This document shows, one piece after another, positions 1,156 to 18,024 of a DNA stretch of 32,000 nt (positions within the stretch are counted from its first letter, which is position 1; every line of letters starts with the position of its first letter). Location: NCBI GenBank assembly GCA_030606485.1, contig JAUWGH010000002.1, positions 457,667 to 489,666 of the forward strand. Reading direction: 5' to 3'. Source of the stretch: Promethearchaeota archaeon. Its GTDB lineage: Archaea > Asgardarchaeota > Lokiarchaeia > Sigyniarchaeales > SOKP01. A program made the position numbers and the translations under genes. A model generated the notes under the pieces. It was given only the letters and a program-made list of their open reading frames with translations, was not told the DNA's origin and made no database searches.

Positions 1156-2238
1156 TCATTTTCCTCTTAGGATTTCTATCGTTTTATTAAAGAATCCTGA
1201 ATTAAAAACTTTCAAAGTCTTTTCATTTTTTATAGCCAACAATTCTATTGGATAATAATCATTATCTCTGGAATTTCTAACTCTTTGTTTTAAAAATTTT
1301 TGTATGGCAATTGAGATAGCATATTTTGAATTATCACATCCAATCCATTTACGATTTAACTTCTCTGCCACATGTAAAGTTGTTCCAGAACCGCAAAAAA
1401 AATCTGCAATTAAATCACCCTCATTACTCCCTATCTGAATTAATCGCTCTAATAACATTGGATGTTTTTGAGTAGGATATCCAGTCCATTCTGAAGAAGC
1501 TGGTTGAATACATGGTATCCGCCAAACATCATCGGCTTTTTTATCATGAACAATTCTGTATTTTACATGACCATTTTCATCCTTTACATTCTTTAAGACA
1601 CCATTTACCGATTCTCGCATTAATTGTTTTACAGGTTTATCTCTAAGAATGCGGAATTCATTAAAAGTATAAGATTTTCCTTTAGAATAAATTAAAATAT
1701 TATCATGAGCTCTTGGAAGATTTTTCTTTCCAGCTGAATATTTATTGTAGTAATACCATATAATTTCATTAACAAATCTATCCTTTCCGAAAATTTCATC
1801 CAATATTGCTCTTATGTAATGTGAAACGTGCCAATCTAAATGAATAATAATAAGACCATTACTTGTTAAAAGTTCTTTCATTAAAATTAAACGTTCATAC
1901 ATCATTTGGAGATATATGTCTAAATTCTTTCCCCAATTATCTTTATACCCAAATTCCTTAAGTATATTTCCATCCATCCGAATTTTTAAAATATAATCAG
2001 AACCCGTTGCAAAGGGAGGATCAATATAAATTAAATTAATTTTATCTGTAAATTTTGAGAGTAAATAGAAAATTACAAGCTTATTATCCCCCCAAAAAAG
2101 TTTATTAGACCAGACATTAATCATTTCACCGGAAGAATTAATTGGTCTAATTAACTTTACTCTCTCGAAGGTTATGCTATTATCCTTTAATTCATTAACG
2201 TCTAAATCTTTTTTATTAGTCCAAGAGAGTCTAACCAT
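1156..2238 (-). CDS. N6-adenine/N4-cytosine DNA methyltransferase, beta class (Mod-like)
   Basis: Catalytic motif IV IYIDPPF lies N-terminal to SAM-binding motif I DFFCGSGTT; GDNK and YPTQKH motifs also present. Confidence 0.9.
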   Translation of the reverse strand: MVRLSWTNKKDLDVNELKDNSITFERVKLIRPINSSGEMINVWSNKLFWGDNKLVIFYLLSKFTDKINLIYIDPPFATGSDYILKIRMDGNILKEFGYKDNWGKNLDIYLQMMYERLILMKELLTSNGLIIIHLDWHVSHYIRAILDEIFGKDRFVNEIIWYYYNKYSAGKKNLPRAHDNILIYSKGKSYTFNEFRILRDKPVKQLMRESVNGVLKNVKDENGHVKYRIVHDKKADDVWRIPCIQPASSEWTGYPTQKHPMLLERLIQIGSNEGDLIADFFCGSGTTLHVAEKLNRKWIGCDNSKYAISIAIQKFLKQRVRNSRDNDYYPIELLAIKNEKTLKVFNSGFFNKTIEILRGK

Positions 2239-2288
2239 TTTATTATTCCTAAATAGTAGATAATATTTTCAAAAATTTGCATTTGAAT

Positions 2289-5200
2289 CTAATAATTATA
2301 AGAGCCTTGATTTTCAGGATAAATAAACTCGAATTTATTAGTGAGTGATTTATGATTAAGCCATTTTTTTATGTTTTTATCCCAGAGATGACAATCCAAT
2401 GGATTCGGATGTTTGAATTTATCAAATAAATTATTAACAAAAAGATCTCCTTTAACTAAATCAAAAAATAAAAGATAATGTTCTATTTTAAAATAATTGA
2501 ATAATTGAGTAATAATTTTCTTAAAATGATTGAAAGCGGAATCTGGTAAATAAAATTTCAAAAATAATCCATTTTCAAATTTAATCATTTTATCTTCTTC
2601 TTTAAAATAATATTCCCCCTCTATTTCATAAATGAATCCATAATTAAGGAAATTAAAAATCTTAATAATTATTTCGATTTGTTCGCGTGTCAAATCTGGA
2701 ACAATTGCATAAAATTTAAATTTAAGACCCGTATTTTCTCTAAGTTTTATTTGGGGAAAAATTAATTTTTTATTAATCAAATCTTTAATGTTATTTAATC
2801 TGGATTTATGTCTTAATTTTATCATATCCAAAAAATTTTGACCATTTAAATCTATGATATTTTGAAAATCTTGGTCGAATTTTCCTTTAATATTTTTTTC
2901 ATCTCTTTCAGAAACATTAAAAACTTTACAATCTATAGAAGGATCAAAATTTTTATCAAATAATATTTTTTGAACAAATATTTCAAAAGTTTGGTATCCA
3001 AAATAAAAGCCATCAGGGCTAATATTAAAATTAAAATTCAAAATTGGAATGATTTTTTTAACTGAAAATGATAAATATTCATCAATTTCTCTTTTACTTT
3101 TTAAAACCCAGTTCAAATATGAGAAATTAGGATTTTTGGAAGGAAATATATATTTAAAAAGATAAGAATTTGCACTTTCCAATGAACAAGTGTATTTTAT
3201 GCTCTTGAATCCTAATGGAAATAGCATCTTCCATTCAATTTCATTAGGAATACTTGGTTTTATGTATAAGTAAAAATTTTCTAAACCGAATTTTTGATAC
3301 GAAGGAATAAGTTTAATATTTTCAATATTTTTTGAATGTTTAATAATGTTTGAAAGATCATCACTTTTTACAAGTTTTTCTTCAAGATTATTGTGTAAAT
3401 CTTCAATTTCTTGAGAGATTTCTAAATTTAATGTTATTTCTTTTTTTAATTTTAGATTTTTTGAATAAGTTTCAAAAGAAATTTTTTTAACCAAATCAGT
3501 GTTAAAATTAGTGAGTTCTATACTCTCTTCCTTATGATATGAAGATATTTTGCGATCTTTAATAAGAGAGATACTAAATTTTGATAATTCATCAAAAAAA
3601 TCTTTACTATAAAAGAAATCATTATTTTCAACATCAAAGAAATTTTCTAAGCTGAAAATTGAAATTATGTATGAATCAATAAATTGTTTAAAGAGAATGA
3701 GATCATGATTAAATAATTTGTAAATTAGACCCAATAAATTTATTTTTTCATTGTCATTTAACTCAATACAATATAAATATAGAAAAGTGTATTTTTCCCC
3801 GGAAATTAGGTCAATGCTTCTATTTATGACTACTCTTGGAAAAATATCCTTAAGAGAATTAATCTTTTTTTCTGTTGTTACAGAATCCTTTATTAATAAA
3901 GTATAAAAAATTGGGCAGATTTTTCTGGCAGAAATGGAAGTAATTAAAAATGGAACTGCTCCTGGAGGGTCAGATTGAACAGTTTGAGTTAATCTCGCAT
4001 CAATATCTTGAAAAGTAATTTTTTTTAATCTATACTCCTTTAGGATTTTTTGGATTTTTTGAAATTTTGTAGTATAAATATTTTCTGCTAATTCTTTTTT
4101 TGTTAAAATGGCTTCAATCACTTTTAAATTAAATATTTTCAGATTCTCTGATGTTTTAAGTAATTGTAAAAAGTTTTCATATTCACTCTTCTCATGCAGA
4201 AAATTAGAATTGTTCATAAAATACACTGAAAATAAGTTAAATAAATTCTTCTTGAACTGAGAGTAATTATATTCAATATTTTCATCAAACTTTGGACCGA
4301 TTCCGTTTTGTTCAATGAAATCAAATAGCATAATTTCATTTTTTAGTTCTGGGTGAGTTTTTAGAATTTTTTCTGTGAGATCTATTAATTTTAAAAAGAA
4401 AGAAATTTGTTCCTTAATATAAAAAAATCCGAAATTTTTATTTGAATCGATTAATGTGAGGAATTTTCGTTTTAATTCCGGGTCTTCGTAAAAAATATTC
4501 AAAATCTTTTTTAAATCCTTAATAATATTTTTTTGAGTTAATAAATAACTAAATACATCACTTTTCACTTTCTGTAATTGCTTCCATTTTTCCTCAAAAC
4601 TAAAACCAGTTGTTGCAAACCATCTAATCCTATTGAGGAGTATAATATCAAATAGATCCATAACCTTTTCTTCTTTAGAAGTGTATTTTAAAGAAGGAGA
4701 AAATATTAAATGTTCGTTAAAATCCTTATCTCCTCTCAGTAATAACTTTTTATTCAAAATATTTTTTTTAAAGTAATTTAGGTTTAGGAAATTTTCATGG
4801 AAAACAAATTTTAACAAAAAAAATTTCTTGATAATTCCATAATTAATTAAGGTTTTAAAAAATTTTTTTAAATCATCAATATATTTCATAGGGATTACAA
4901 AAATTCCTGTAACTTCAACCCCAAACTTTGATTCTTGAGTTCTATTTACCCAATAAAATGGTAAATGTTGTAGAATTTTTTGTACCTTATAATTTCCAAG
5001 TTGAGGGTTAAAAAATATATAACAATAAACCATATTACAAAAATAATACTGCCAATTAATTTGATAATTTGGGGAAATCACATTTTGAGGTAAAAAAGTC
5101 TTAAAATACCGATTAAATTTCTTTGGAGTAAAAGAGGTATTAATTTTTTGCTCTAATTTTAATTTTTTAAACATATTTTCAAAATCCGCTCTTCTCGTAT

Positions 5201-5831
5201 AGCGTTTTGTTATTTGAAAAATACCGTATATTAATGAAAAGAATTCTAATTCATCTTCATTCTCAAAATAACCTTGTATTATGTTTTGTGTCATAATATC
5301 GCGAAATAGATTATATTCCACATCGAGATTCAAAAAAAGAGATGAATGTTTATGAATGTAATCAAATAGATTTTTTAAATTTTTTATTATAAAATCGCCA
5401 AATCTAAATTTCCACCATGCATATAAAGGATCTGTTTTGAAGTAATTTTCCCATTCATTAAAATTCGGAAGTCTATTTAATAGATCTGAAACCTTTACTA
5501 ACACTATCGTTTTTAACAATGAATAATTCTGTAAAGGGATTGGTATAAAAAGGTAAAATGACTCTCGTAGGAGAATAAATTTTATTATTTTCTGCATATC
5601 TGAATGGATCTGCAGAGTAATTTTTTTATTTTGTTTGGAAGTTCTTTTAACACCAAAATCAAACCTTTCATTTTCAAAATTTGCTAAGTAATCAATTTTT
5701 GAAATAAAAACTTTTTGAGGGTGAATTGATGGTTTTCTTTTTAGATATTCTTCTAATTCTTCCAAACAATAATTAAACCAATATTCTACATTGTCGGGAG
5801 AAATCGTATTTTTAATAAATTCTTCTAGCAT
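2289..5831 (-). CDS. Large hypothetical protein (1180 aa), possibly with repeated Lrp/AsnC-like alpha/beta modules
   Basis: Long uninterrupted ORF with no clear enzyme motif. Several segments begin with a P-x-Y/W-xx-(F)GL-like linker followed by alternating beta/alpha patterns. Confidence 0.75.
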   Translation of the reverse strand: MLEEFIKNTISPDNVEYWFNYCLEELEEYLKRKPSIHPQKVFISKIDYLANFENERFDFGVKRTSKQNKKITLQIHSDMQKIIKFILLRESFYLFIPIPLQNYSLLKTIVLVKVSDLLNRLPNFNEWENYFKTDPLYAWWKFRFGDFIIKNLKNLFDYIHKHSSLFLNLDVEYNLFRDIMTQNIIQGYFENEDELEFFSLIYGIFQITKRYTRRADFENMFKKLKLEQKINTSFTPKKFNRYFKTFLPQNVISPNYQINWQYYFCNMVYCYIFFNPQLGNYKVQKILQHLPFYWVNRTQESKFGVEVTGIFVIPMKYIDDLKKFFKTLINYGIIKKFFLLKFVFHENFLNLNYFKKNILNKKLLLRGDKDFNEHLIFSPSLKYTSKEEKVMDLFDIILLNRIRWFATTGFSFEEKWKQLQKVKSDVFSYLLTQKNIIKDLKKILNIFYEDPELKRKFLTLIDSNKNFGFFYIKEQISFFLKLIDLTEKILKTHPELKNEIMLFDFIEQNGIGPKFDENIEYNYSQFKKNLFNLFSVYFMNNSNFLHEKSEYENFLQLLKTSENLKIFNLKVIEAILTKKELAENIYTTKFQKIQKILKEYRLKKITFQDIDARLTQTVQSDPPGAVPFLITSISARKICPIFYTLLIKDSVTTEKKINSLKDIFPRVVINRSIDLISGEKYTFLYLYCIELNDNEKINLLGLIYKLFNHDLILFKQFIDSYIISIFSLENFFDVENNDFFYSKDFFDELSKFSISLIKDRKISSYHKEESIELTNFNTDLVKKISFETYSKNLKLKKEITLNLEISQEIEDLHNNLEEKLVKSDDLSNIIKHSKNIENIKLIPSYQKFGLENFYLYIKPSIPNEIEWKMLFPLGFKSIKYTCSLESANSYLFKYIFPSKNPNFSYLNWVLKSKREIDEYLSFSVKKIIPILNFNFNISPDGFYFGYQTFEIFVQKILFDKNFDPSIDCKVFNVSERDEKNIKGKFDQDFQNIIDLNGQNFLDMIKLRHKSRLNNIKDLINKKLIFPQIKLRENTGLKFKFYAIVPDLTREQIEIIIKIFNFLNYGFIYEIEGEYYFKEEDKMIKFENGLFLKFYLPDSAFNHFKKIITQLFNYFKIEHYLLFFDLVKGDLFVNNLFDKFKHPNPLDCHLWDKNIKKWLNHKSLTNKFEFIYPENQGSYNY

Positions 5832-5871
5832 ACTATAATATTATAAAACTTAATCTTATTTTTATTTTAAT

Positions 5872-6396
5872 TCATTTTTCTCTTAGGTCTAAATCATAAT
5901 ACTCCAAATCTTCTAAAGTATTACTGACCTTTACAAAATCTTTTACAACACATCTAAATTTAAAATTTAGTTTATTGAGAAGATATTTCATATTTAAATT
6001 TCTTGATAAAGTATTACAAGTAATCCATTCAAAACCTTTATCTTCAATTTGTTTTATTGTTTCTGAAAAAAAATGCGTACCGATTCCTTTTTTTCTATAT
6101 TTACTCTTAATAATCACTCCCATATTAACAGATTTTGGAAATATCGGGTTAAAATCGTTTATTACCGCATATTCACAAATACCAATAATATCTTTCTTAT
6201 AATCTTTATTATTAGAGTAAATTACATTAACATAATATTTCGGATTTTTCAGTTGCTCGAAATAGATGTTTTGGGGTATCTTAACTGCAAATGAATCGGA
6301 GTAATAGTCTTCAAAAAGTTCCCATAACAAATCCCTTAATTCAAATTTTTCTTTATGTTCTAAAGTTTTGAATTTTAATGAATCAATAATTGCCAT
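5872..6396 (-). CDS. GNAT family N-acetyltransferase
   Basis: Acetyl-CoA binding motif A (IIKSKYRKKGIGT) and motif B (NLNMKYLLNKLNF). Confidence 0.85.
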   Translation of the reverse strand: MAIIDSLKFKTLEHKEKFELRDLLWELFEDYYSDSFAVKIPQNIYFEQLKNPKYYVNVIYSNNKDYKKDIIGICEYAVINDFNPIFPKSVNMGVIIKSKYRKKGIGTHFFSETIKQIEDKGFEWITCNTLSRNLNMKYLLNKLNFKFRCVVKDFVKVSNTLEDLEYYDLDLREK

Positions 6397-8806: not shown

Positions 8807-11800
8807 ATGCCTGATTCGAAGCGTAAAATAAGGCGCAAATATGTTTTATCTTCAATTATAATTGTTTTCATATTGTTTTCTTGTTTTTATCAGATTAAAA
8901 ACTCTTATTACTATTCCAGTGAGAATTATAGACCTATAAACACAAGTAATGGCCATGAACGGATTTTTATTGATGGAGATGCTACTGGAGTAGGTGCCCA
9001 AAATTGGACTTATGCGTTACAGCAAAATTGGTGTACTGGATCTGGAACTTGGGATGAACCATATATTATAGAGAATAAAAGAATAGATGGTCAGGAAATA
9101 GGAAACTGTATTGAAATAAGAGATTCCATAGCTTATTTTCAAATAAAGAATTGCACTCTCTATAATTCTAGCATAACGACGTCGGGAATACAATTAACAT
9201 ACGTTGATAATGGAATCATATTAAGCAATAATTGTTCTTTTAATAATGGTAATGGTATAGATATTTTTATGTGTGATAACAATACCGTAATAAATAATAC
9301 TGTGAGCAATAACACACTTTCAGGCATAAATTTGACTACCTTTAGCCACGATAACAACATTACCGGTAATCTTGTTAAAAATAATTTAAAAGATGGTATA
9401 AAAATTGGAAAAGAATTATTTTCAAACTGTAATGACAATATCCTTTCTAATAATTCAGTGATATCAAACGATGGTAATGGTATATCGATATTAAGTGATT
9501 ATAATGATCTTCTTAACAATAGCGTTTTATATAATAAATTAAATGGTATTTTTTTGAATCAAAGCCGTTATGGAAATATATGGAAAAATAATTGTTCTTA
9601 CAATTATGACTCTGGAATTTTAATTGATCGAGGTGATTATAATAATATTTCAGGTAACGAAATCAGTTATAATTACAAAGGTATTGATATTTCAGGGTTG
9701 TGGTTTTGGGAAGAATGTTTAGATAATGAGATCTCTAATAATAATATACATAATAATAGGGGAGGAGGGATTGAACAAGATTATTGTAAAAATACAATAA
9801 TTTCAAATAATAACTTTACTAACAACAAATTATATGGGGGATATAATAATAATAATACAAAGATTTATAAAAATACTTTCGAAAATAGTGGGATTTACTC
9901 ACATGATAGCAATTACTCAGTTATCTATGACAATAAAATAAACGCTAGTGATGATTATTGTATAAATATAAATCGGGCTTATTATTCCAATATAACGGGA
10001 AACACGATATATAATGGCGGCATATATTATGGAGGTATTCGCATTAATGAATGTAATTCTTCAATTCTTTCTAATAATACTTTAGACTTGAATACAAAAA
10101 AGGGAATTTATATATATTTAAGTAATCACACGACTTTGACTCAAAACAAAATGTATAATTGTGGTATCAAATTCGAGGATTCGTTAGAAAGCGCTTCTAC
10201 TTCTAATATTGATGCATCGAATACCATTAATGGTAACCCTGTGTATTTTTATTATAACAAATCCAACTTAAAACCAATTAATTTTACTGACGCAGGGCAA
10301 GTAATAGCGATTTATTGTAATGATTCGATTTTATCTAATTTTAACATCAGTTCTATTTTAAGCGGAATTTCAATGCATTTTTGCAAAAACATCTCTATTT
10401 CAGAAGTAAATATTAGTGAAAACGATTATGGTATTTATCTAAGCCAATGTATTAATATTACGATGAATAATATCACTCTTTCAGATAACGAATATGGAAT
10501 CTACCTTCCAAACAGTAATAATACAGTCATTTCAACGATCACATCTTTATTTAACGAGTACGGTATTATTTGTTATAGAAACCACAATATTACTATAAAC
10601 GAATGTAATATTAATTATAGCGAATATGGAATTATATCATCGGCTTGTAATAATATCAATCTTACTGGCAATACTATAGTCAATTGTGATTATGGTATTT
10701 ATACAACCTCAAATCGTAATGTCACTTTATGTTCAAATAGATTATTTAACTGTGGAGTAATATTAAATGATGTTATTTCAAATTTTTTAACTTATAAAAT
10801 AAATACCTCTAATAAGGTTAATAACAAACCTTTATATTTTTATACCAATAAACTTGGACTAAAACCTTTCAATTTTTCTAATGCGGGTCAAATAATATTA
10901 GTTAATTGTAATAACTCACGTATTTCGGATGTAAAAATGTCAAATTGTTCTCGTGGTGTTTCATTACTTTCTTGTAAAAACATTTCTATTTACAATGTTA
11001 CTTCAATAAATAATATAGATAGGGGTTTTTACTTAGGTGGAGGTTTTAACAACACTGTTCAAAAGTGTAATTTTTCATATAATTTAATTGGATTATATCT
11101 GGGAAATACACATAATAATACAATTTTAGAAACAAATACATCTCACAACACACAAGTGGGGATATATATTTCTGGAAGTAGAAATATCACTCTTATAGGA
11201 AATAGACTAAGTTACGACCTAGTGGGTATTAAGCTAGATAATAGTTATGATTGCAATCTTACAGATAATAATATGAAAAATTGCGGCATAGAAATTAAGG
11301 AATCTATTGACTGGGAAACTTATTCAACAAATTCTATTGATACAACAAATAAAGTAAATGGAAAAGATGTTTATTATTATTTTAATAAAACTAATCTAAA
11401 TTCAAATGATTTTATTAACGCAGGTCAAGTGATCCTTGTCAAATGCAACGACTCCTTAATAAATAACTTAAATATTACAAATATTTCTAATGGAATTTAT
11501 ATGTATTATTGCAATAATCATATTATTTCAAATTGTCAAATTACAAATAATAATTATGGAATTTATCTATATTTTGGGAATAATTTTTTACTAACAGGAA
11601 ATACCATAAATCGAAATTTTGTTGGTTTATCGTTAATCTCTAATAATAGTACAATAACTCAATGTGACTTTATAGAGAACAATCATTCCATTAGTGGAGA
11701 AGGAAGCAATAATCTAATTTATAACAATTATATTGACGGTAGTGCGTACCTTTGGCCTTCCAACAATTGGAATAATTCTTATGCAGGTAATTATTGGAGC

Positions 11801-13876
11801 AACTATAGCGGCGTTGATTCTGATAATGATGGAATTGGTGATACCCCTTATTTAATTTATGTGACTGGAGCGCCAGAAGTCTATTATGATTATAAACCCC
11901 TTATGAATCCACCAAATATAGATACAGACGGAGATGGATTATTAAATTCAGAAGAATATGATTTAGGAAATGATGGATATCTAACAAATGTAACCAATCC
12001 AGATTCGGATTACGATGGATTAAGTGATTATGACGAATGGATAAATCTAGCAAATCCATGGGATAATGACACAGATAATGACAGTATGCCAGATGGATGG
12101 GAAGTTTTAAATAGTTTAAATGTTATAGATGGTAATGATAATATAACAGACGCAGATAACGATGGAATATCAAATCTTAACGAGTTTTTTTACGGGACCA
12201 ATCCTCAAATGGCGGATACAGATCTGGATGGAATGCCAGATGGATGGGAATTAGATAATTCTTTAAATTTATTTGCAAATGATGCCATGGAAGATCCTGA
12301 CCTAGATACAATACTAAATTATTACGAATACTTGAATGGAACAGATCCAAGGAACAACGATACAGAATTTGATGGGATGCCTGACGGATGGGAGATTAAT
12401 AACTCATTAGACCCTTTAAATAATGACGCTATGAGCGATGCGGATAACGATCAGTTGGAAAATATTTACGAATTTTTGAACGGGACAGACCCTCATAACG
12501 ACGATTCTGATGGTGATACTATACTAGATGGTATTGAGGTTGGTTTACACACAGATCCTTTAGACGGTTTCTGGTTTCCGATGCCAAATTTGAAAATTTC
12601 AAGTTTTAGTGTAAGTGATGTTTACGAGGGTCAGGCATTTATTTTAAATTTTACGATTACTAATAATGGTATCTGGAAAGCAAATGGGATTATACTTTCG
12701 ATTCGATGTGAAGCGCTGAATTTAACGCTATATGAAAATATGGCTGAGCCATTTGATTTAGAAGTTAACAAGTCAAAAAATTTCCTCATAGATTGTACCT
12801 CAATATCTACAGCTGGAATTTTTGTACTAACATTGGATCTCGATCCAGGAAATTTATTAAACGAAACCTATAGTTCTCCTGATGGTTCGTATCGTTCTGA
12901 TTGGACAGAGGACAATATAAAACAAATAGAAATGCAAATTATCGAGGGGGATGGAGGTATTGCAGTAGAGATGTTTATCATTGTTGTTTCTGTAGCAGGG
13001 GTTATTATTGGTATGATAGGTCTTACAATTTTAGTAAGACCAAAAATAAAAAAAATCATATATTCAAAAAACCAACGGAACAAAGCTAAAGCAGAACTCG
13101 AAGACTTCGAGTTTAAAGTTCGAAATTTTATAAGAGAACAACTGGAAGAATTCTACGGAGCAGAATGGTGGGAAAAAGGAATACCAGAATATATTAGATT
13201 AGGTGTAGAAAATAAAATAAGAACCGAACAAATTAAAGCGCCAAAAATGAAAGTTCAAAATATTAATTATCTCGACTTCAATCATTATTTTCTAATTATT
13301 AATGAAAAAGAAAATTGGGACAATATTTTTTCAGATGTTTTTCAAGATAAAAATAAACTCGCAGAAAATTTCGAGAATTTAAGAGTATTTAAGAACAATA
13401 TTTCTCAAAATGTAGCTACTTCCCAGGAAATAGATGCGTATCTGTTTTATATTTATGGCATAACAACCTTTTTTACTAAAGGTTTTAATGTATTTCTTAG
13501 TTATTCGACATTGGATTCAGAATATTTTCAAATCTCAGAGATCGTGTCCCGCCTTGAGACTTATCCAAAAATGGATAAGATTTTCTTTTGGGAAGCAGAT
13601 AGTGGAGAAAATATTGTTGAATATATGGAAAGGATTTTAAACATTAGCAAAGTGTTTGTTATGTTTTGTTCTGAAAACTCTATAAAATCAAAAGCGGTAG
13701 AAGATGAATGGCAAGCTGCTTTTCAATTAAGAAAAAAGGGATTGATGAAAATAGTACCCGTGTATGAAGATGACCAATTTATCCCTAAATTATTAATGCC
13801 ACTTTTAAATGTGAAATTTTCTAAAGACGATTTTGATGGGTTTATCGACAAACTCTATGAAGAAATATTAAGGTAA
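8807..13876 (+). CDS. Receptor-like protein: signal/anchor, NosD/CASH right-handed beta-helix, DxDxDG Ca-binding repeats, CARDB/Ig-like domain, TM helix, Swt1-type HEPN-like domain, TIR domain
   Basis: N-terminal KRKIRRK plus hydrophobic stretch; many GI-x-L...NN-x-I-xx-N repeats; DTDxDGMPDGWE repeats; PNLKIS...FTITNNG...LDPGNLLNET (CARDB-like); TM at ~12971-13036; EFKVRNFI...WWEKGIP...YLDF (Swt1-like); VFLSYS...FVMFCSENSIKSKAVEDEW...IVPV (TIR). Confidence 0.9.
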   Translation: MPDSKRKIRRKYVLSSIIIVFILFSCFYQIKNSYYYSSENYRPINTSNGHERIFIDGDATGVGAQNWTYALQQNWCTGSGTWDEPYIIENKRIDGQEIGNCIEIRDSIAYFQIKNCTLYNSSITTSGIQLTYVDNGIILSNNCSFNNGNGIDIFMCDNNTVINNTVSNNTLSGINLTTFSHDNNITGNLVKNNLKDGIKIGKELFSNCNDNILSNNSVISNDGNGISILSDYNDLLNNSVLYNKLNGIFLNQSRYGNIWKNNCSYNYDSGILIDRGDYNNISGNEISYNYKGIDISGLWFWEECLDNEISNNNIHNNRGGGIEQDYCKNTIISNNNFTNNKLYGGYNNNNTKIYKNTFENSGIYSHDSNYSVIYDNKINASDDYCININRAYYSNITGNTIYNGGIYYGGIRINECNSSILSNNTLDLNTKKGIYIYLSNHTTLTQNKMYNCGIKFEDSLESASTSNIDASNTINGNPVYFYYNKSNLKPINFTDAGQVIAIYCNDSILSNFNISSILSGISMHFCKNISISEVNISENDYGIYLSQCINITMNNITLSDNEYGIYLPNSNNTVISTITSLFNEYGIICYRNHNITINECNINYSEYGIISSACNNINLTGNTIVNCDYGIYTTSNRNVTLCSNRLFNCGVILNDVISNFLTYKINTSNKVNNKPLYFYTNKLGLKPFNFSNAGQIILVNCNNSRISDVKMSNCSRGVSLLSCKNISIYNVTSINNIDRGFYLGGGFNNTVQKCNFSYNLIGLYLGNTHNNTILETNTSHNTQVGIYISGSRNITLIGNRLSYDLVGIKLDNSYDCNLTDNNMKNCGIEIKESIDWETYSTNSIDTTNKVNGKDVYYYFNKTNLNSNDFINAGQVILVKCNDSLINNLNITNISNGIYMYYCNNHIISNCQITNNNYGIYLYFGNNFLLTGNTINRNFVGLSLISNNSTITQCDFIENNHSISGEGSNNLIYNNYIDGSAYLWPSNNWNNSYAGNYWSNYSGVDSDNDGIGDTPYLIYVTGAPEVYYDYKPLMNPPNIDTDGDGLLNSEEYDLGNDGYLTNVTNPDSDYDGLSDYDEWINLANPWDNDTDNDSMPDGWEVLNSLNVIDGNDNITDADNDGISNLNEFFYGTNPQMADTDLDGMPDGWELDNSLNLFANDAMEDPDLDTILNYYEYLNGTDPRNNDTEFDGMPDGWEINNSLDPLNNDAMSDADNDQLENIYEFLNGTDPHNDDSDGDTILDGIEVGLHTDPLDGFWFPMPNLKISSFSVSDVYEGQAFILNFTITNNGIWKANGIILSIRCEALNLTLYENMAEPFDLEVNKSKNFLIDCTSISTAGIFVLTLDLDPGNLLNETYSSPDGSYRSDWTEDNIKQIEMQIIEGDGGIAVEMFIIVVSVAGVIIGMIGLTILVRPKIKKIIYSKNQRNKAKAELEDFEFKVRNFIREQLEEFYGAEWWEKGIPEYIRLGVENKIRTEQIKAPKMKVQNINYLDFNHYFLIINEKENWDNIFSDVFQDKNKLAENFENLRVFKNNISQNVATSQEIDAYLFYIYGITTFFTKGFNVFLSYSTLDSEYFQISEIVSRLETYPKMDKIFFWEADSGENIVEYMERILNISKVFVMFCSENSIKSKAVEDEWQAAFQLRKKGLMKIVPVYEDDQFIPKLLMPLLNVKFSKDDFDGFIDKLYEEILR
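11921..12568 (+). repeat. Coding tandem repeats: thrombospondin type 3-like Ca-binding DxDxDG units
   Basis: About ten units such as DTDGDGLLNSEE, DTDNDSMPDGWE, DTDLDGMPDGWE, DSDGDTILDGIE, separated by GTNP/GTDP linkers. Confidence 0.85.
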
Positions 13877-14068
13877 AAATTTACAGTATTCTATTACAAT
13901 ACTTTTTGCTTCATTGGATTTTTATTTTATCCAAAATATGTAAGATTTTTATAATAAATCGACCAATATTTTCATAAATAAATAAAGCGATTTCAATAGG
14001 ATTTATATTAAGAAATCAAATGGGTATTTTACAATTGGAAATTAAGAAACTGATTTAAAAATGTTAAA

Positions 14069-14255
14069 AAATTAATAGATTATTATGAAGATGATTGGTG
14101 GGATAATGGGATTCGTAATTTGGAAAGTAGACAGTGGTGAAAGTGTTGTTAAATTGATGAAGGAAGCTTTAACCATAAGTTATGTGTTTATACTTTTTTG
14201 TTCAGAAAATTCAAAAAAGTCTGAGGCTGTAAAAGGTGAATGACAAGCAGTTTTT
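14069..14255 (+). pseudogene. Relic of a HEPN-TIR gene paralogous to the 3' end of the 1689-aa gene
   Basis: 14121-14255 reads WKVDSGESVVKLMKEALTISYVFILFCSENSKKSEAVKGE*QAVF, gap-free against WEADSGENIVEYMERILNISKVFVMFCSENSIKSKAVEDEWQAAF (26/45 identical), with TGA at 14241 in place of Trp. In another frame just upstream, KLIDYYEDDWWDNGI resembles QLEEFYGAEWWEKGI. Confidence 0.85.
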
Positions 14256-14299
14256 GATTATGGAGGAAATGGATAATTTTCCTATTTTACTGCCATTTT

Positions 14300-16816
14300 T
14301 TAAATATTCTCAAAGAATTTTAAAATTTCTTGCCCAAAAACTCTAGACATGATTTCCGCCATTCTTTTTTCATTTCTATAACTTCTAACTTGTTGAAGAT
14401 TTTTAAAATCATCCATTAATTCTTCTTCACATATTTTAGTATAATCTTCTATTTTTTTTGTTAAAGATTTTGAAGGTTTTTCAAAAAGAAAAAAGAATAT
14501 TCTAAAATCTTCTGTTCTAAAAGGAGTCATCGTTATAGCACCTCCTTCAGCGGATAGGATAGGAATCTCTCCAAATCCAATTTCACTAGCAAAACTTTGA
14601 ATTGCTGATAAAAGACCAGACATTAAATCACCTGGTTGAGATATATCTGAGAAATCCTTTTCATAGATACTTGCTCCATAAATATGTTGAATTAAAAGTT
14701 TTCGAAGATTTTCGATATCAGGATCAGTAGTAAATGGTTTTGTAAGAAACTCATGGATTTCTTCTGAAGTATTATTGATTACTTTAAATAGTCTTTTAGG
14801 TTTTTCAAGATGCTTAATGTTATTCTTTTCTAACCAATTTTTATCATTAATCAATTCTGATGCTTCGCGTCCACTATTTTTTATAATAGCCACTTGTGCT
14901 CCAAAAGCAATTGCCATTCGATATTCAAGTGCAGCAATTTTTCCTCCATTAATTCCAATTAATTTTACATTACTATGATCTAATCCAGATTTTAAAATAT
15001 CATACCAATATTGTAATGCTTCAAGAATACTAAAATCTGTTCCTATTGTTGAGTGAATCTTTTTATAACGTTCGTCAATCTTGATATCATAAGGTAGTAG
15101 ATGTGGAATGTATCCAATAGTTTTTATAGTTTCGGGATATTTTTCTTGAATATCACCAACAATTCTACAAATTCCTGATTTAGTACCTCCAGATATAATT
15201 GTTCCTTTAAAATCACAAAACCCATCAGTAAGAGTATTTTTGTAGTTTTGGAGCAGTTTTTCTAATCTTGCATCAGTCCCACCTGCTATAATTACAATGG
15301 GTTCTTTAAGATCATTTTCTTTTATTTCCATACAATTATCCAATTTCTTTAGAGCATCACTGTACATTTTTTGATTGTATGAGAGATTTTTATTAGGATG
15401 AAACAGTATCCCTAATAATAATAAACTTCTGATTAATTCAATCCCAGGCATTTGGTTATGAATATTTTTAAGTTCATCTAAAGTATTTAGAGTTGTATCA
15501 ATCATCCACATATTCTGACTATGATTTATTCCATTTAAGTAATAAATAAGACTGTCGTCTAACTTACCAAGAAAAAACGAAAAAAGTCCCATATCAAAAA
15601 ATGCCCAAGGTATCTCAACTTTAACTTCTATTTGATTTAATCTTCTTTCAATACCTTTTTGAATCAATTCTTTATTATATTTAATATGTTTTAAATTTCC
15701 AGTTTTCTGAATTTTCATTATTAGGTAATTTAATAAAGGATATGGATGCGAAGGATCAGCCTTTAAAGCTTTTTTGTAATATTTATATGCTTTTTCATAA
15801 TCTTTAAGAATTTTATAAGATCCACCTAAGGAAGCAAAAGCATCTGAATCCATTGGATTTTTTTCAACTGCTGTTTTCAAATATGATTGCCCCTCTACAT
15901 ATCTTGAACTTCTTGGATTATTTTTATTTTTTTTATATAATGCTATTCCAAGATCTCGTAAAACGGACGCTTGTTTTAAATCAGGATACTTTTTCCATTC
16001 ATCTATTTTTAAAATATTTTCAATAATCACTATAGTTTTATCCCATTCATTAATTGCCATTGCTAACTTAGCGATTTTATGAGCAATATCGAAATCGTTT
16101 TTATTCGCAGAATATACTAATTCTAATTTTTTTATCTCATCTTTAATTCTTTCATTGGACATGTAAGCTCCATAGCTAGATTCGTAATCACGCATTTTCT
16201 TTATTAGAGTATTTAAGGATATATCAGCAGTCTCTAAAAGCGCTTTTATTCGATTAAATTCTCGAATATATGGTTTAGGGATTTTAAATTCAGTTTTATA
16301 AAGACTTCCATATTTATTTACTTCCCAGCCATGTTGCAAGAAAGTACGTATTTGAATTTCTGCTTTTAAACCAAAAATTTCGTCGGGAACATGTAATTCT
16401 AATCTCTTATAGAGATCTGATTTGGGATTGAGTTCTACAATAAAATTTTTCAGTAATTCTTGAAGTTCTAATTTATCGGTTTTACTTTTTTCATTTTCTT
16501 CAATTATAATAAAATGTTTTTGCATTAACTTGCTGACAGTATTTAATTCGTCCAAATTGGGTAATATTATTTTTAATCCAATTAAATCATTCATTTCTTC
16601 AGTTACATTTGAATTATTTATATTTGAATTAAAAATTTCATCAATAAAACCATAAATAGTCTTTGTCTTTCCCTCAATCATGAATTCAGAAGAATAACTT
16701 CCAATAATATGAGTCAGAATTTTTTCTAATATTTCACAATATTGTTCATAAAGAGGAAGTGAGTAACAGTAAGAATTTATTTGACTTTTGATAAAATTAA
16801 GCGTTTTTTCATCCAT
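14300..16816 (-). CDS. Multidomain protein: degenerate RelA/SpoT-like nucleotidyltransferase, TPR repeats, SLOG-like domain, C-terminal longin-like domain
   Basis: DLIGLKII and EIQIRTFLQHGW...LYK (RelA/SpoT-like); TPRs such as DAFASLGGSYKILKDYEKAYKYYKKALKADP; IIAGGT, IISGGTKSG, GINGGKIAALEYRMA (SLOG-like); LLIQHIYGASIYEKDF...DLMSGLLSAIQSFASEIG (longin-like). Confidence 0.8.
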   Translation of the reverse strand: MDEKTLNFIKSQINSYCYSLPLYEQYCEILEKILTHIIGSYSSEFMIEGKTKTIYGFIDEIFNSNINNSNVTEEMNDLIGLKIILPNLDELNTVSKLMQKHFIIIEENEKSKTDKLELQELLKNFIVELNPKSDLYKRLELHVPDEIFGLKAEIQIRTFLQHGWEVNKYGSLYKTEFKIPKPYIREFNRIKALLETADISLNTLIKKMRDYESSYGAYMSNERIKDEIKKLELVYSANKNDFDIAHKIAKLAMAINEWDKTIVIIENILKIDEWKKYPDLKQASVLRDLGIALYKKNKNNPRSSRYVEGQSYLKTAVEKNPMDSDAFASLGGSYKILKDYEKAYKYYKKALKADPSHPYPLLNYLIMKIQKTGNLKHIKYNKELIQKGIERRLNQIEVKVEIPWAFFDMGLFSFFLGKLDDSLIYYLNGINHSQNMWMIDTTLNTLDELKNIHNQMPGIELIRSLLLLGILFHPNKNLSYNQKMYSDALKKLDNCMEIKENDLKEPIVIIAGGTDARLEKLLQNYKNTLTDGFCDFKGTIISGGTKSGICRIVGDIQEKYPETIKTIGYIPHLLPYDIKIDERYKKIHSTIGTDFSILEALQYWYDILKSGLDHSNVKLIGINGGKIAALEYRMAIAFGAQVAIIKNSGREASELINDKNWLEKNNIKHLEKPKRLFKVINNTSEEIHEFLTKPFTTDPDIENLRKLLIQHIYGASIYEKDFSDISQPGDLMSGLLSAIQSFASEIGFGEIPILSAEGGAITMTPFRTEDFRIFFFLFEKPSKSLTKKIEDYTKICEEELMDDFKNLQQVRSYRNEKRMAEIMSRVFGQEILKFFENI

Positions 16817-17301: not shown

Positions 17302-17379
17302 CTACCATAGAAATTCCTTATAGAGTTTCTTAATAAACCAATCGAAATCATCTATAGTAAACTCAACATTTAAAAGCGG
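17302..17379 (-). pseudogene. Relic of a TIR gene C-terminus
   Basis: Reads PLLNVEFTIDDFDWFIKKLYKEFLW* against PLLNVKFSKDDFDGFIDKLYEEILR* of the 1689-aa protein: 17/25 identical, no gaps, same stop position. In-frame TAA at 17395-17397 upstream and no start codon. Confidence 0.8.
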
Positions 17380-17463: not shown

Positions 17464-18024
17464 TTATTGTGAGATTGAACGAGACTTATTAAATTTATTA
17501 TATAACTCTTTAATAATTGCATGGAATCCTTGGGAAACTCGAGTCCCTGTTAATGCTGATGTTCTGTAATATCCAAGAAAGTTTCGCTTTTTTACTATTT
17601 TCAGAACCTTATTATCGTTTAAATTTTTCTCATCAACTAAATCAACTTTATTGCCAAATAATACGGTAGGTATATTGCCACAATAATTTTTAATATTATC
17701 ATGCCAATTCGTAATATGTTTAAAACTTTCTTGACCAAGATCATTTTCTTCAAGAGAATATACGATAATAGCAGCTTTACTCTCTTTATAGAAAGAGGGG
17801 CGTAAAAAATTAAAATCATCTTGTCCGGCTATATCCCAAAATAAAAGTTTGAAATAATTGCCATCTATTTCCTCTTCATAGCTAAAAAATTGCGCTCCTA
17901 TGGTTTTAATATATTCCTTTTGAAACCTACCTTTTGTAAATTTAGTAATTAATGATGTTTTTCCTACTGCTCCGTCTCCTACAACTGATATTTTAAATGT
18001 AAATTTATCGCCGCCTTTATTCAT
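17464..18024 (-). CDS. Rab/Ras-like small GTPase
   Basis: G1 GDGAVGKTS, G2 TIGAQF, G3 WDIAGQ, G4 GNKVDL, G5 TSAL. No C-terminal prenylation cysteines (ends SRSISQ). Confidence 0.95.
   Translation of the reverse strand: MNKGGDKFTFKISVVGDGAVGKTSLITKFTKGRFQKEYIKTIGAQFFSYEEEIDGNYFKLLFWDIAGQDDFNFLRPSFYKESKAAIIVYSLEENDLGQESFKHITNWHDNIKNYCGNIPTVLFGNKVDLVDEKNLNDNKVLKIVKKRNFLGYYRTSALTGTRVSQGFHAIIKELYNKFNKSRSISQ

Follow-up and report, generated by a model that had tools for sequence, protein, structure and literature searches.

A predicted Toll-like TIR receptor at the surface of an Asgard archaeon and its genomic link to a RelA/SpoT-SLOG protein

Can an archaeon carry a TIR-based signal from the cell surface to its cytoplasm, and if so, which protein reads the signal inside? 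This question is raised by a stretch of 32,000 nucleotides from a Promethearchaeota archaeon (GenBank assembly GCA_030606485.1, contig JAUWGH010000002.1, positions 457,667 to 489,666 of the forward strand), which we call the window. The window is AT-rich (~27% G+C) and encodes a protein of 1689 amino acids (aa), P0001, that is built like a Toll-like receptor (TLR), and a convergent neighbor, P0076, that combines a RelA/SpoT-type domain with a SLOG domain. Surface-receptor TIR signaling has to our knowledge so far been an animal trait, and the known roles of prokaryotic TIR domains are those of phage sensors or effectors in the cytosol. We judge the balance to lie slightly in favor of the following full chain: P0001 would be a single-pass surface receptor of this Asgard (Promethearchaeota/Loki-type) archaeon, and its TIR domain would generate a messenger that acts through the SLOG domain of P0076 on the RelA/SpoT domain.

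A sequence-only reading of the window had proposed for P0001 a signal or anchor segment, a beta-helix, calcium-binding repeats, a CARDB-like domain, one transmembrane (TM) helix, a Swt1-HEPN-like domain, and a terminal TIR domain. Pfam searches and hydropathy analysis confirm this architecture. The features of the receptor gene and its neighbor, in window coordinates, are as follows.

8807 to 13876, plus strand: whole receptor gene (P0001, 1689 aa), an uninterrupted open frame
8807 to 8899, plus strand: N-terminal signal peptide or signal anchor, aa 1 to 31 (hydropathy, charge count)
8954 to 11815, plus strand: head of the ectodomain, a right-handed beta-helix (NosD-type), about aa 50 to 1003 (Pfam)
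11816 to 12541, plus strand: TSP3-type repeats (DxDxDG), predicted to bind calcium, about aa 1004 to 1245 (Pfam)
12584 to 12871, plus strand: membrane-proximal CARDB-like domain of Ig type, about aa 1260 to 1355 (weak Pfam match)
12959 to 13036, plus strand: single TM helix, aa 1385 to 1410, then RPKIKK (Kyte-Doolittle peak 2.76)
13037 to 13465, plus strand: juxtamembrane helix and Swt1-type HEPN-like helical bundle, aa 1411 to 1553 (HEPN_Swt1, PADLOC)
13484 to 13873, plus strand: C-terminal TIR domain, aa 1560 to 1689 (TIR_2, structure model, fold matches)
13706 to 13708, plus strand: codon of Glu1634, at the position of the catalytic Glu in TIR domains that cleave nicotinamide adenine dinucleotide (NAD) (alignment with Cat1 and AtTIR)
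14300 to 16816, minus strand: convergent neighbor P0076, 838 aa, with RelA/SpoT nucleotidyltransferase, TPR, SLOG, and longin domains (Pfam, structure model)

The head matches NosD (198 bits, E value of 1.7e-58, 8 stretches) and Beta_helix (193.7 bits, E value of 2e-57, 7 stretches), both above the Pfam cut-off. Below it, the stalk matches TSP3_bac (E value of 1.8e-8), as do the stalks of 8 of 13 relatives, and it holds six DxDxD[GN] motifs at aa 1004 to 1142. The CARDB match is weak in the receptor itself (E value of 0.05, 14 bits against a cut-off of 22.7); since the stalks of 8 of the 13 relatives match CARDB (best E value of 4.7e-5), the assignment is credible at the level of the family. 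Apart from these NosD/Beta_helix, TSP3, and CARDB-like parts, we looked for leucine-rich repeats (LRRs) in the receptor ectodomain with Pfam and obtained no match.

Just two segments of the receptor are hydrophobic (aa 12 to 30 and aa 1385 to 1410). There are 6 Lys or Arg residues within the first 12 residues and 8 within the 20 residues after the second helix, and because of this distribution of charges the tail is predicted to lie inside. The N terminus and the HEPN-TIR tail would then be cytoplasmic and the 1350-residue middle external, in a TLR-like type I topology. The TM helix and cytoplasmic TIR domain that had been claimed are thus borne out, except that the helix begins at nucleotide 12959 rather than at 12971 (both versions end at 13036). 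Nearly all of the cysteines (34 of 35) and NxS/T sequons (69 of 71) are in the ectodomain. The 69 sequons over aa 31 to 1384 compare with 35.7 ± 5.1 in shuffled sequences, an excess of about twofold that may come in part from the Asn-rich consensus of the beta-helix repeats; the tail is not enriched. Most relatives share the N-terminal signal or anchor.

A gene of this kind could be a chimera of assembly, and this is ruled out by sequences obtained elsewhere. P0002, from a separate ENA assembly, is also 1689 aa long and is 95% identical throughout. Contigs of two other studies (P2 and P3, marine sediment and cold seep) span 12300 to 13043, 13004 to 13858, and 12674 to 14299, and together these stretches cross all junctions between the stalk and the TIR domain and run on into the downstream relic described below.

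The TIR domain is the best-supported part of the tail. TIR_2 (PF13676) matches aa 1562 to 1683 with 58.7 bits (cut-off, 28), and 24 of 24 relatives also match. An AlphaFold2 model of aa 1378 to 1689, made from a 24-sequence alignment, has a pLDDT (predicted local distance difference test) of 85 and consists of one unbroken helix at aa 1383 to 1458 (TM and juxtamembrane), a helical bundle, and the TIR domain, which has the flavodoxin-like TIR fold. In VIA-align comparisons, the TIR domain superimposes on Cat1 with a Z score of 15.4 and a root mean square deviation of 1.7 Å over 116 residues, followed by RPS4 (14.7), MyD88 (14.6), Hydra TRR-2 (14.0), AtTIR (13.9), SARM1 (13.7), and ThsB (12.4). 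The top Foldseek matches are the filament-forming TIR domains of MyD88 and MAL. Structural matches therefore come from bacterial, plant, and animal TIR domains, and they include the NAD-depleting SARM1, SPARTA, and Cat1. Since the bacterial, plant, and animal matches are tied within about 1 Z unit, neither a special kinship to animal TLR TIR domains nor a special distance from them can be claimed. The earlier description of the protein as a convergent TLR analogue holds for the order of its domains; the receptor TIR domain itself is homologous to TLR TIR domains.

The codon at 13706 to 13708 encodes E1634, the second E of AVEDEW, which had been singled out as the catalytic position. Indeed, phmmer aligns E1634 with the Glu of the D-E-L motif in Cat1 (9mud) and AtTIR (3jrn), which we take to be the catalytic Glu of those TIR domains. 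Glu is kept at this position in 30 of 30 HEPN-TIR relatives and in 191 of 194 family members. The first E of the motif, E1632 (GAA at 13700 to 13702), is ACT (Thr) in P0002 and in strain variants of other sediment samples, in all of which E1634 is unchanged; such variants may serve as a natural pointer to which Glu matters.

Between the membrane and the TIR domain lies the HEPN-like bundle. HEPN_Swt1 matches the receptor with 26.8 bits, just under the cut-off of 27.5, and it matches 20 of 24 relatives with E values of <0.01. The region is also similar in sequence to the PADLOC candidate PDC-M34B (1e-11) over aa 1429 to 1533. Unlike Swt1-type HEPN RNases, however, the receptor does not have the R-x4-6-H RNase motif. 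The corresponding site reads LRVFKNNISQN, and neither the Arg nor the His is conserved in 30 relatives. Because the motif is missing both here and in the relatives, we read the bundle as a structural or dimerizing spacer and probably not a nuclease. The Swt1-HEPN-like domain of the sequence-only reading thus stands as a similarity and falls as a catalytic HEPN domain. Fold searches with the tail model returned matches to the TIR region only, so the bundle was barely probed structurally, and a complex prediction for two copies of the tail (aa 1411 to 1689) scored 0.00, which is no verdict and is uninformative on dimerization.

The receptor belongs to a family that has been found in Asgard archaea only. 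With the tail as query, 72 long homologues were retrieved, and every source name that gives a lineage is Asgard (Promethearchaeota/-archaeia, Odin-, Hod-, or Hermodarchaeota). When 185,579 species genomes were scanned with two TIR motifs specific to the family, 51 loci emerged; the titles of these loci name Promethearchaeota/-archaeia, Odin-, or Hermodarchaeota where they give a lineage, and the others read "uncultured archaeon." At E values of ≤1e-30, an exhaustive search puts the size of the family at 126 clusters (50% identity). With few exceptions, the long members share one layout: an N-terminal anchor, an ectodomain, one TM helix, and a C-terminal TIR domain. The ectodomains carried on this TIR domain are beta-helices, FG-GAP/PQQ propellers, SBP_bac_5 and Peripla_BP_6/ANF_receptor solute-binding domains, and PKD domains, and the family TIR domain is also found at the C terminus of cytosolic LRR proteins and of proteins with four TM helices (4-TM proteins). 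The swapping of ectodomains on one tail, which had been suggested as something to look for, is therefore found. Identity to relatives decreases from the TIR domain (56 to 79%) through the stalk (39 to 56%) and the HEPN-like bundle (35 to 54%) to the head (28 to 39%), and the stalk is retained even where the head is a propeller. As judged from these identities, the graded conservation matches a design in which the output is fixed and the sensors can be exchanged. The presence of the family is patchy. Of the 201 genomes sampled from the phylum, 26 have it, and so do 21 of the 40 from the window's own taxonomic family. Within the window's genus, the genome studied here has the only intact copy, two genomes have relics, and one has none.

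We propose that the receiver of the TIR product is P0076. By Pfam, this protein has RelA_SpoT (38.8 bits), TPR, and LSDAT_prok (SLOG family; 29.7 bits) domains. A model of aa 495 to 838 has a pLDDT of 86, and its SLOG fold matches TM1055 (Z score of 18.4), the ADP-ribose-binding TRPM2 (16.1), and the SLOG domain of BcThsA with 3' cyclic ADP-ribose (3'cADPR; 11.1). The last 140 residues have a longin fold (synbindin, 12.3; sedlin, 11.6). Of the core residues of the RelA/SpoT domain, D77 never varies, and the EIQxRT residues E153, Q155, and T158 hardly do.

Genes of the P0076 type (RelA-SLOG) are present in 9 of the 201 sampled genomes of the phylum, and in 7 of these 9 a family TIR gene is within 16 kb of the RelA-SLOG gene. 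The two genes are direct neighbors, no more than 1 kb apart, in four genomes (the window's own, G000, and G186, G174, and G071), and the distance is 2 to 16 kb in three (G177, G129, and G168). With a handful of TIR copies in a genome of 3 to 4 Mb, we estimate that proximity by chance would be expected in a few percent of cases per genome. In GCA_048937405, an orthologous beta-helix-HEPN-TIR receptor is followed by a gene for a 526-aa coiled-coil protein and then by a RelA-SLOG gene whose product is 46% identical. The conserved linkage suggests outside-to-inside signaling by an NAD-derived messenger. It gives independent support, from the side of a SLOG-domain gene, to the second-messenger synthesis that the sequence-only reading had offered as one of two branches, the messenger itself being putative.

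Two other kinds of family TIR protein are found near RelA-SLOG genes. In three genomes, the gene directly upstream of RelA-SLOG (L007, 13 to 2514; L008, 2675 to 5200; L009, 13467 to 15476; coordinates of fetched loci) encodes a protein of about 840 aa that begins with a 4-TM module, continues through an ArnB_C-like region, a coiled coil, and a PCI-like domain, and ends in the family TIR domain. These 4-TM-TIR proteins are a second, multi-pass class of membrane sensor. In G168 (contig C38; L010, 15615 to 19285, and L011, 2383 to 4887), the family TIR domain is part of cytosolic LRR proteins, namely, two tandem TIR-LRR proteins of about 590 aa and one LRR-PCI-like-TIR protein of 835 aa. They represent an archaeal combination of LRR and TIR without an NB-ARC or NACHT domain, and their genes share a 25-kb contig with two RelA-SLOG paralogues.

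Outside the Asgard archaea, the relatives of P0076 are RelA/SpoT-SLOG-RyR proteins of bacteria and methanogens, some of which are named ppGpp synthetase/RelA/SpoT-type nucleotidyltransferase in their sources. They share the RelA/SpoT, TPR, and SLOG parts with P0076 and are 36 to 57% identical to it over the SLOG domain. A TIR or DUF4062 NADase gene adjoins two of the three whose surroundings were viewed. In a metagenome-assembled genome of Methanobacterium (L015, 178 to 10970), the RelA_SpoT-TPR-SLOG-RyR gene is followed directly by a TIR_2-NACHT gene; a CHAT protease-TPR gene is also near, and the stretch is likely a conflict island. A bacterial homologue sits between a NUDIX gene and a DUF4062 gene, and DUF4062 is reported to be a TIR-like NADase (bioRxiv 10.64898/2026.05.01.722283). 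The surroundings of the third distant homologue show neither a TIR gene nor a DUF4062 gene. The Asgard form differs from these proteins in that it ends in a longin domain instead of RyR and in that its TIR partners are membrane receptors.

The chain that we slightly favor would run as follows. A ligand would bind outside the cell, such as a glycan, a particle, or a cell surface in the case of the beta-helix and small molecules in the case of the solute-binding relatives. The packed helices of the TM and juxtamembrane segments and the HEPN-like spacer would shift or cluster and bring TIR domains together. The assembled TIR domains would cleave NAD+ to an ADP-ribose-derived messenger, which would occupy the SLOG pocket of P0076 and turn on its RelA/SpoT-type pyrophosphokinase, which would then make alarmones or carry out a related pyrophosphoryl transfer. 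The cell might respond with stress adaptation, dormancy, or an abortive reaction, and the longin domain might connect the pathway to small GTPases. Catalysis by receptor TIR domains has a precedent in animals, where TLR TIR domains are reported to make cADPR (bioRxiv 10.64898/2026.04.20.719644), and in type I Thoeris the products of TIR domains activate SLOG effectors (bioRxiv 10.64898/2025.12.03.692087).

The putative system appears to combine a TLR-like architecture with a Thoeris-like logic. Like animal Toll-like, IL-1, and Hydra Toll-related receptors, the Asgard receptor starts with a signal sequence and has a large ectodomain built of repeats, a single TM helix, and a TIR domain in the cytoplasm; the TIR fold is the same (see the Z scores for Hydra TRR-2 and MyD88 above), and both families have diversified through changes of the ectodomain. 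In contrast to the animal receptors, its head is a beta-helix and not LRR or Ig, a seemingly dead HEPN-like bundle separates its TM helix from its TIR domain, and no MyD88-type adaptors were identified for it. The resemblance of the whole architecture is one of domain order and does not imply descent. Thoeris pairs ThsB with a SLOG or other ligand-domain effector (in type I, the SIR2-SLOG protein ThsA), and the likeness lies in a Glu-bearing TIR domain linked to a SLOG gene and in the match of the P0076 SLOG domain to 3'cADPR-bound ThsA and to TRPM2. By analogy, the logic would be that of Thoeris with the sensor moved to the cell surface. The differences are that ThsB is small and cytosolic, whereas the Asgard TIR sensor is a 1689-aa surface receptor; that the effector is a RelA/SpoT protein with TPR and longin domains and not SIR2, TM-Macro, or another known type; and that the two genes are convergent in the window.

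That convergent arrangement has a local history. Two relics of a second TIR gene lie on opposite strands and bracket the RelA-SLOG gene:

14030 to 14273, plus strand: decayed remains of a second HEPN-TIR tail, with part of the HEPN start followed by the TIR middle (tblastn E value of 2e-12, translation)
17308 to 17370, minus strand: remnant of a TIR domain, its last 21 codons (tblastn E value of 0.003, 67% identity)

In the first relic, the Trp codon that follows the catalytic-position Glu reads TGA. The pair is the apparent footprint of an inversion of roughly 3.1 kb that broke the second TIR gene, and inversion of the TIR 3' end together with RelA-SLOG explains both relics. Undoing it gives a co-directional order of TIR and then RelA-SLOG, as in G186, G174, and G071. 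The intact receptor is the sole family TIR left in the window's genome.

Several points weigh against the chain from receptor to P0076. The gene that once stood directly upstream of RelA-SLOG would have been the one now reduced to a relic, not the receptor gene, and the receptor and P0076 genes, being convergent, do not form an operon. Outside the window, the directly adjacent partner is in all three cases a 4-TM protein and not a beta-helix receptor. Since the genomes that show linkage are related (they belong to three genera of a single family), the counts suggest more independence than there is, and most family TIR genes have no RelA-SLOG gene nearby (26 genomes with TIR, 9 with RelA-SLOG). 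Because only this genome in the genus has an intact copy, the receptor gene is dispensable. In the TIR domain, an Ala stands four residues before the Glu, at the Trp of S-x-W-C-x-D-E-L in Cat1 and AtTIR, and the unusually high conservation of the domain could come from protein-protein contacts and not from catalysis. Finally, the NADase activity, its product, the SLOG ligand, and the output of the RelA domain are all steps that we infer.

Some of these points would fit a stand-alone suicide sensor that responds to a virus or another insult at the cell surface and whose TIR domain simply depletes NAD+ (abortive infection), with RelA-SLOG as an independent accessory. SARM1 and SPARTA are models for such depletion, and both are, with Cat1, among the structural matches of a domain that conserves the catalytic-position Glu. 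The RelA-SLOG neighbor is missing for most family members, and the family's patchy distribution, the relics, and the inversion are reminiscent of how defense genes turn over. Together with the PADLOC matches of the window, which are to candidate families only (PDC-M34B and PDC-S33), the patchiness and relics point to conflict. On the other hand, adjacency of TIR and RelA-SLOG genes recurs in several Asgard genera, other TIR-type genes take this place in Methanobacterium and a bacterium, and solute-binding ectodomains are a poor fit for virus sensing alone. These ectodomains and the metabolic gene neighborhood (beta-oxidation, sugar-use, and methyltransferase genes and one DNA methylase, with no classical defense-island setting evident among the window genes) point instead to environmental sensing, and with so many solute-binding relatives the family looks as much like general environmental sensing as like immunity. 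We consider the suicide sensor unlikely.

The TIR domain might also be no enzyme at all but an assembly domain, as the TIR domains of animal TLR/IL-1R signaling have classically been described, that recruits TIR or adaptor proteins such as the 526-aa coiled-coil protein. A TIR identity of 56 to 79% across paralogues with different sensors suggests a common partner surface, filament-forming TIR domains lead the Foldseek list, and the conserved 526-aa gene follows receptors in four loci. Yet the Glu is almost never lost in the family, although pure scaffolds need not keep it; the window's genome contains a single TIR locus besides the receptor, and the 526-aa gene lies on a different contig there; and even TLR TIR domains are reported to be catalytic, as cited above. 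A scaffold is in our view quite unlikely. It is very improbable that P0001 is instead a surface enzyme, adhesin, or envelope protein, with a NosD-type beta-helix that is lyase-like or binding and a tail for anchoring or turnover. Many archaeal surface proteins and carbohydrate-active enzymes have beta-helix/NosD domains, GH5 cellulase and MFS sugar-transporter genes are in the same window, and the ectodomain is rich in sequons. However, a strongly conserved HEPN-TIR tail of 279 residues far exceeds an anchor, and a tail that stays constant while unrelated folds replace the heads is a sensor-output signature.

More broadly, and with somewhat less than an even chance, Asgard archaea may use the TIR domain as a general output module of receptors at the surface and in the cytosol. 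Dozens of interchangeable sensors would act through a single conserved, NAD-cleaving TIR domain, and SLOG proteins such as P0076 would read its nucleotide product and turn it into alarmone and possibly small-GTPase or membrane-traffic responses. Such a prokaryotic network, in the lineage closest to eukaryotes, might be a forerunner of TLR signaling or an independent invention. If the chain from surface receptor to P0076 is correct, TIR signaling from outside to inside exists in the prokaryotes most closely related to eukaryotes. A RelA/SpoT alarmone-type synthetase with a longin domain would be a new class of effector in TIR/Thoeris-like signaling, and NAD-derived messengers would be tied to stringent-response chemistry. 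The receptor and P0076 offer a concrete pair of two proteins with which to identify an NAD-derived messenger. In a literature search that did not take in Burroughs et al. 2015, neither Asgard membrane TIR receptors nor a TIR system with RelA/SpoT-SLOG turned up, and the main text of a survey of 29 predicted Thoeris types does not contain SpoT, ppGpp, or RyR. What is new here is the link between a RelA-SLOG neighbor and a TIR receptor family, with structural support for the SLOG and longin domains.

The 526-aa coiled-coil protein (P0074) matches no Pfam family and is a possible adaptor or effector. In each of four other Asgard genomes, its gene directly follows a TIR receptor gene:

L001, 15547 to 17127; L002, 14904 to 16484; L004, 15225 to 16805; L009, 8809 to 10428: 526-aa coiled-coil gene, downstream of receptors

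The window's genome has its own copy of this type (39% identical; L006, 1501 to 3093), and we rejected it as part of the window locus because it is on a different contig.

Next to the longin-ending RelA-SLOG gene is a gene for a Ras/Rab-like small GTPase (17464 to 18024, minus strand; Pfam Ras, 5.9e-43). It was rejected as a part of the module, as tblastn found no homologue in the fetched loci, which have short flanks. At the other end of the window (1156 to 5831, minus strand), an N6/N4 DNA methylase of 360 aa lies beside a 1180-aa open reading frame with no Pfam or PADLOC match, and the two may be a restriction-modification-like pair. Elsewhere in the same genome (contig C4, locus L019), a 185-aa ThsB_TIR protein is encoded at 3338 to 3895 (plus strand), and directly after it, at 3917 to 5977 (plus strand), is a gene for a 686-aa protein with TIR_2 and SLOG-cluster2 domains (LD_cluster2, E value of 4.5e-83). 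This TIR/SLOG pair looks Thoeris-like and unrelated to the receptor family.

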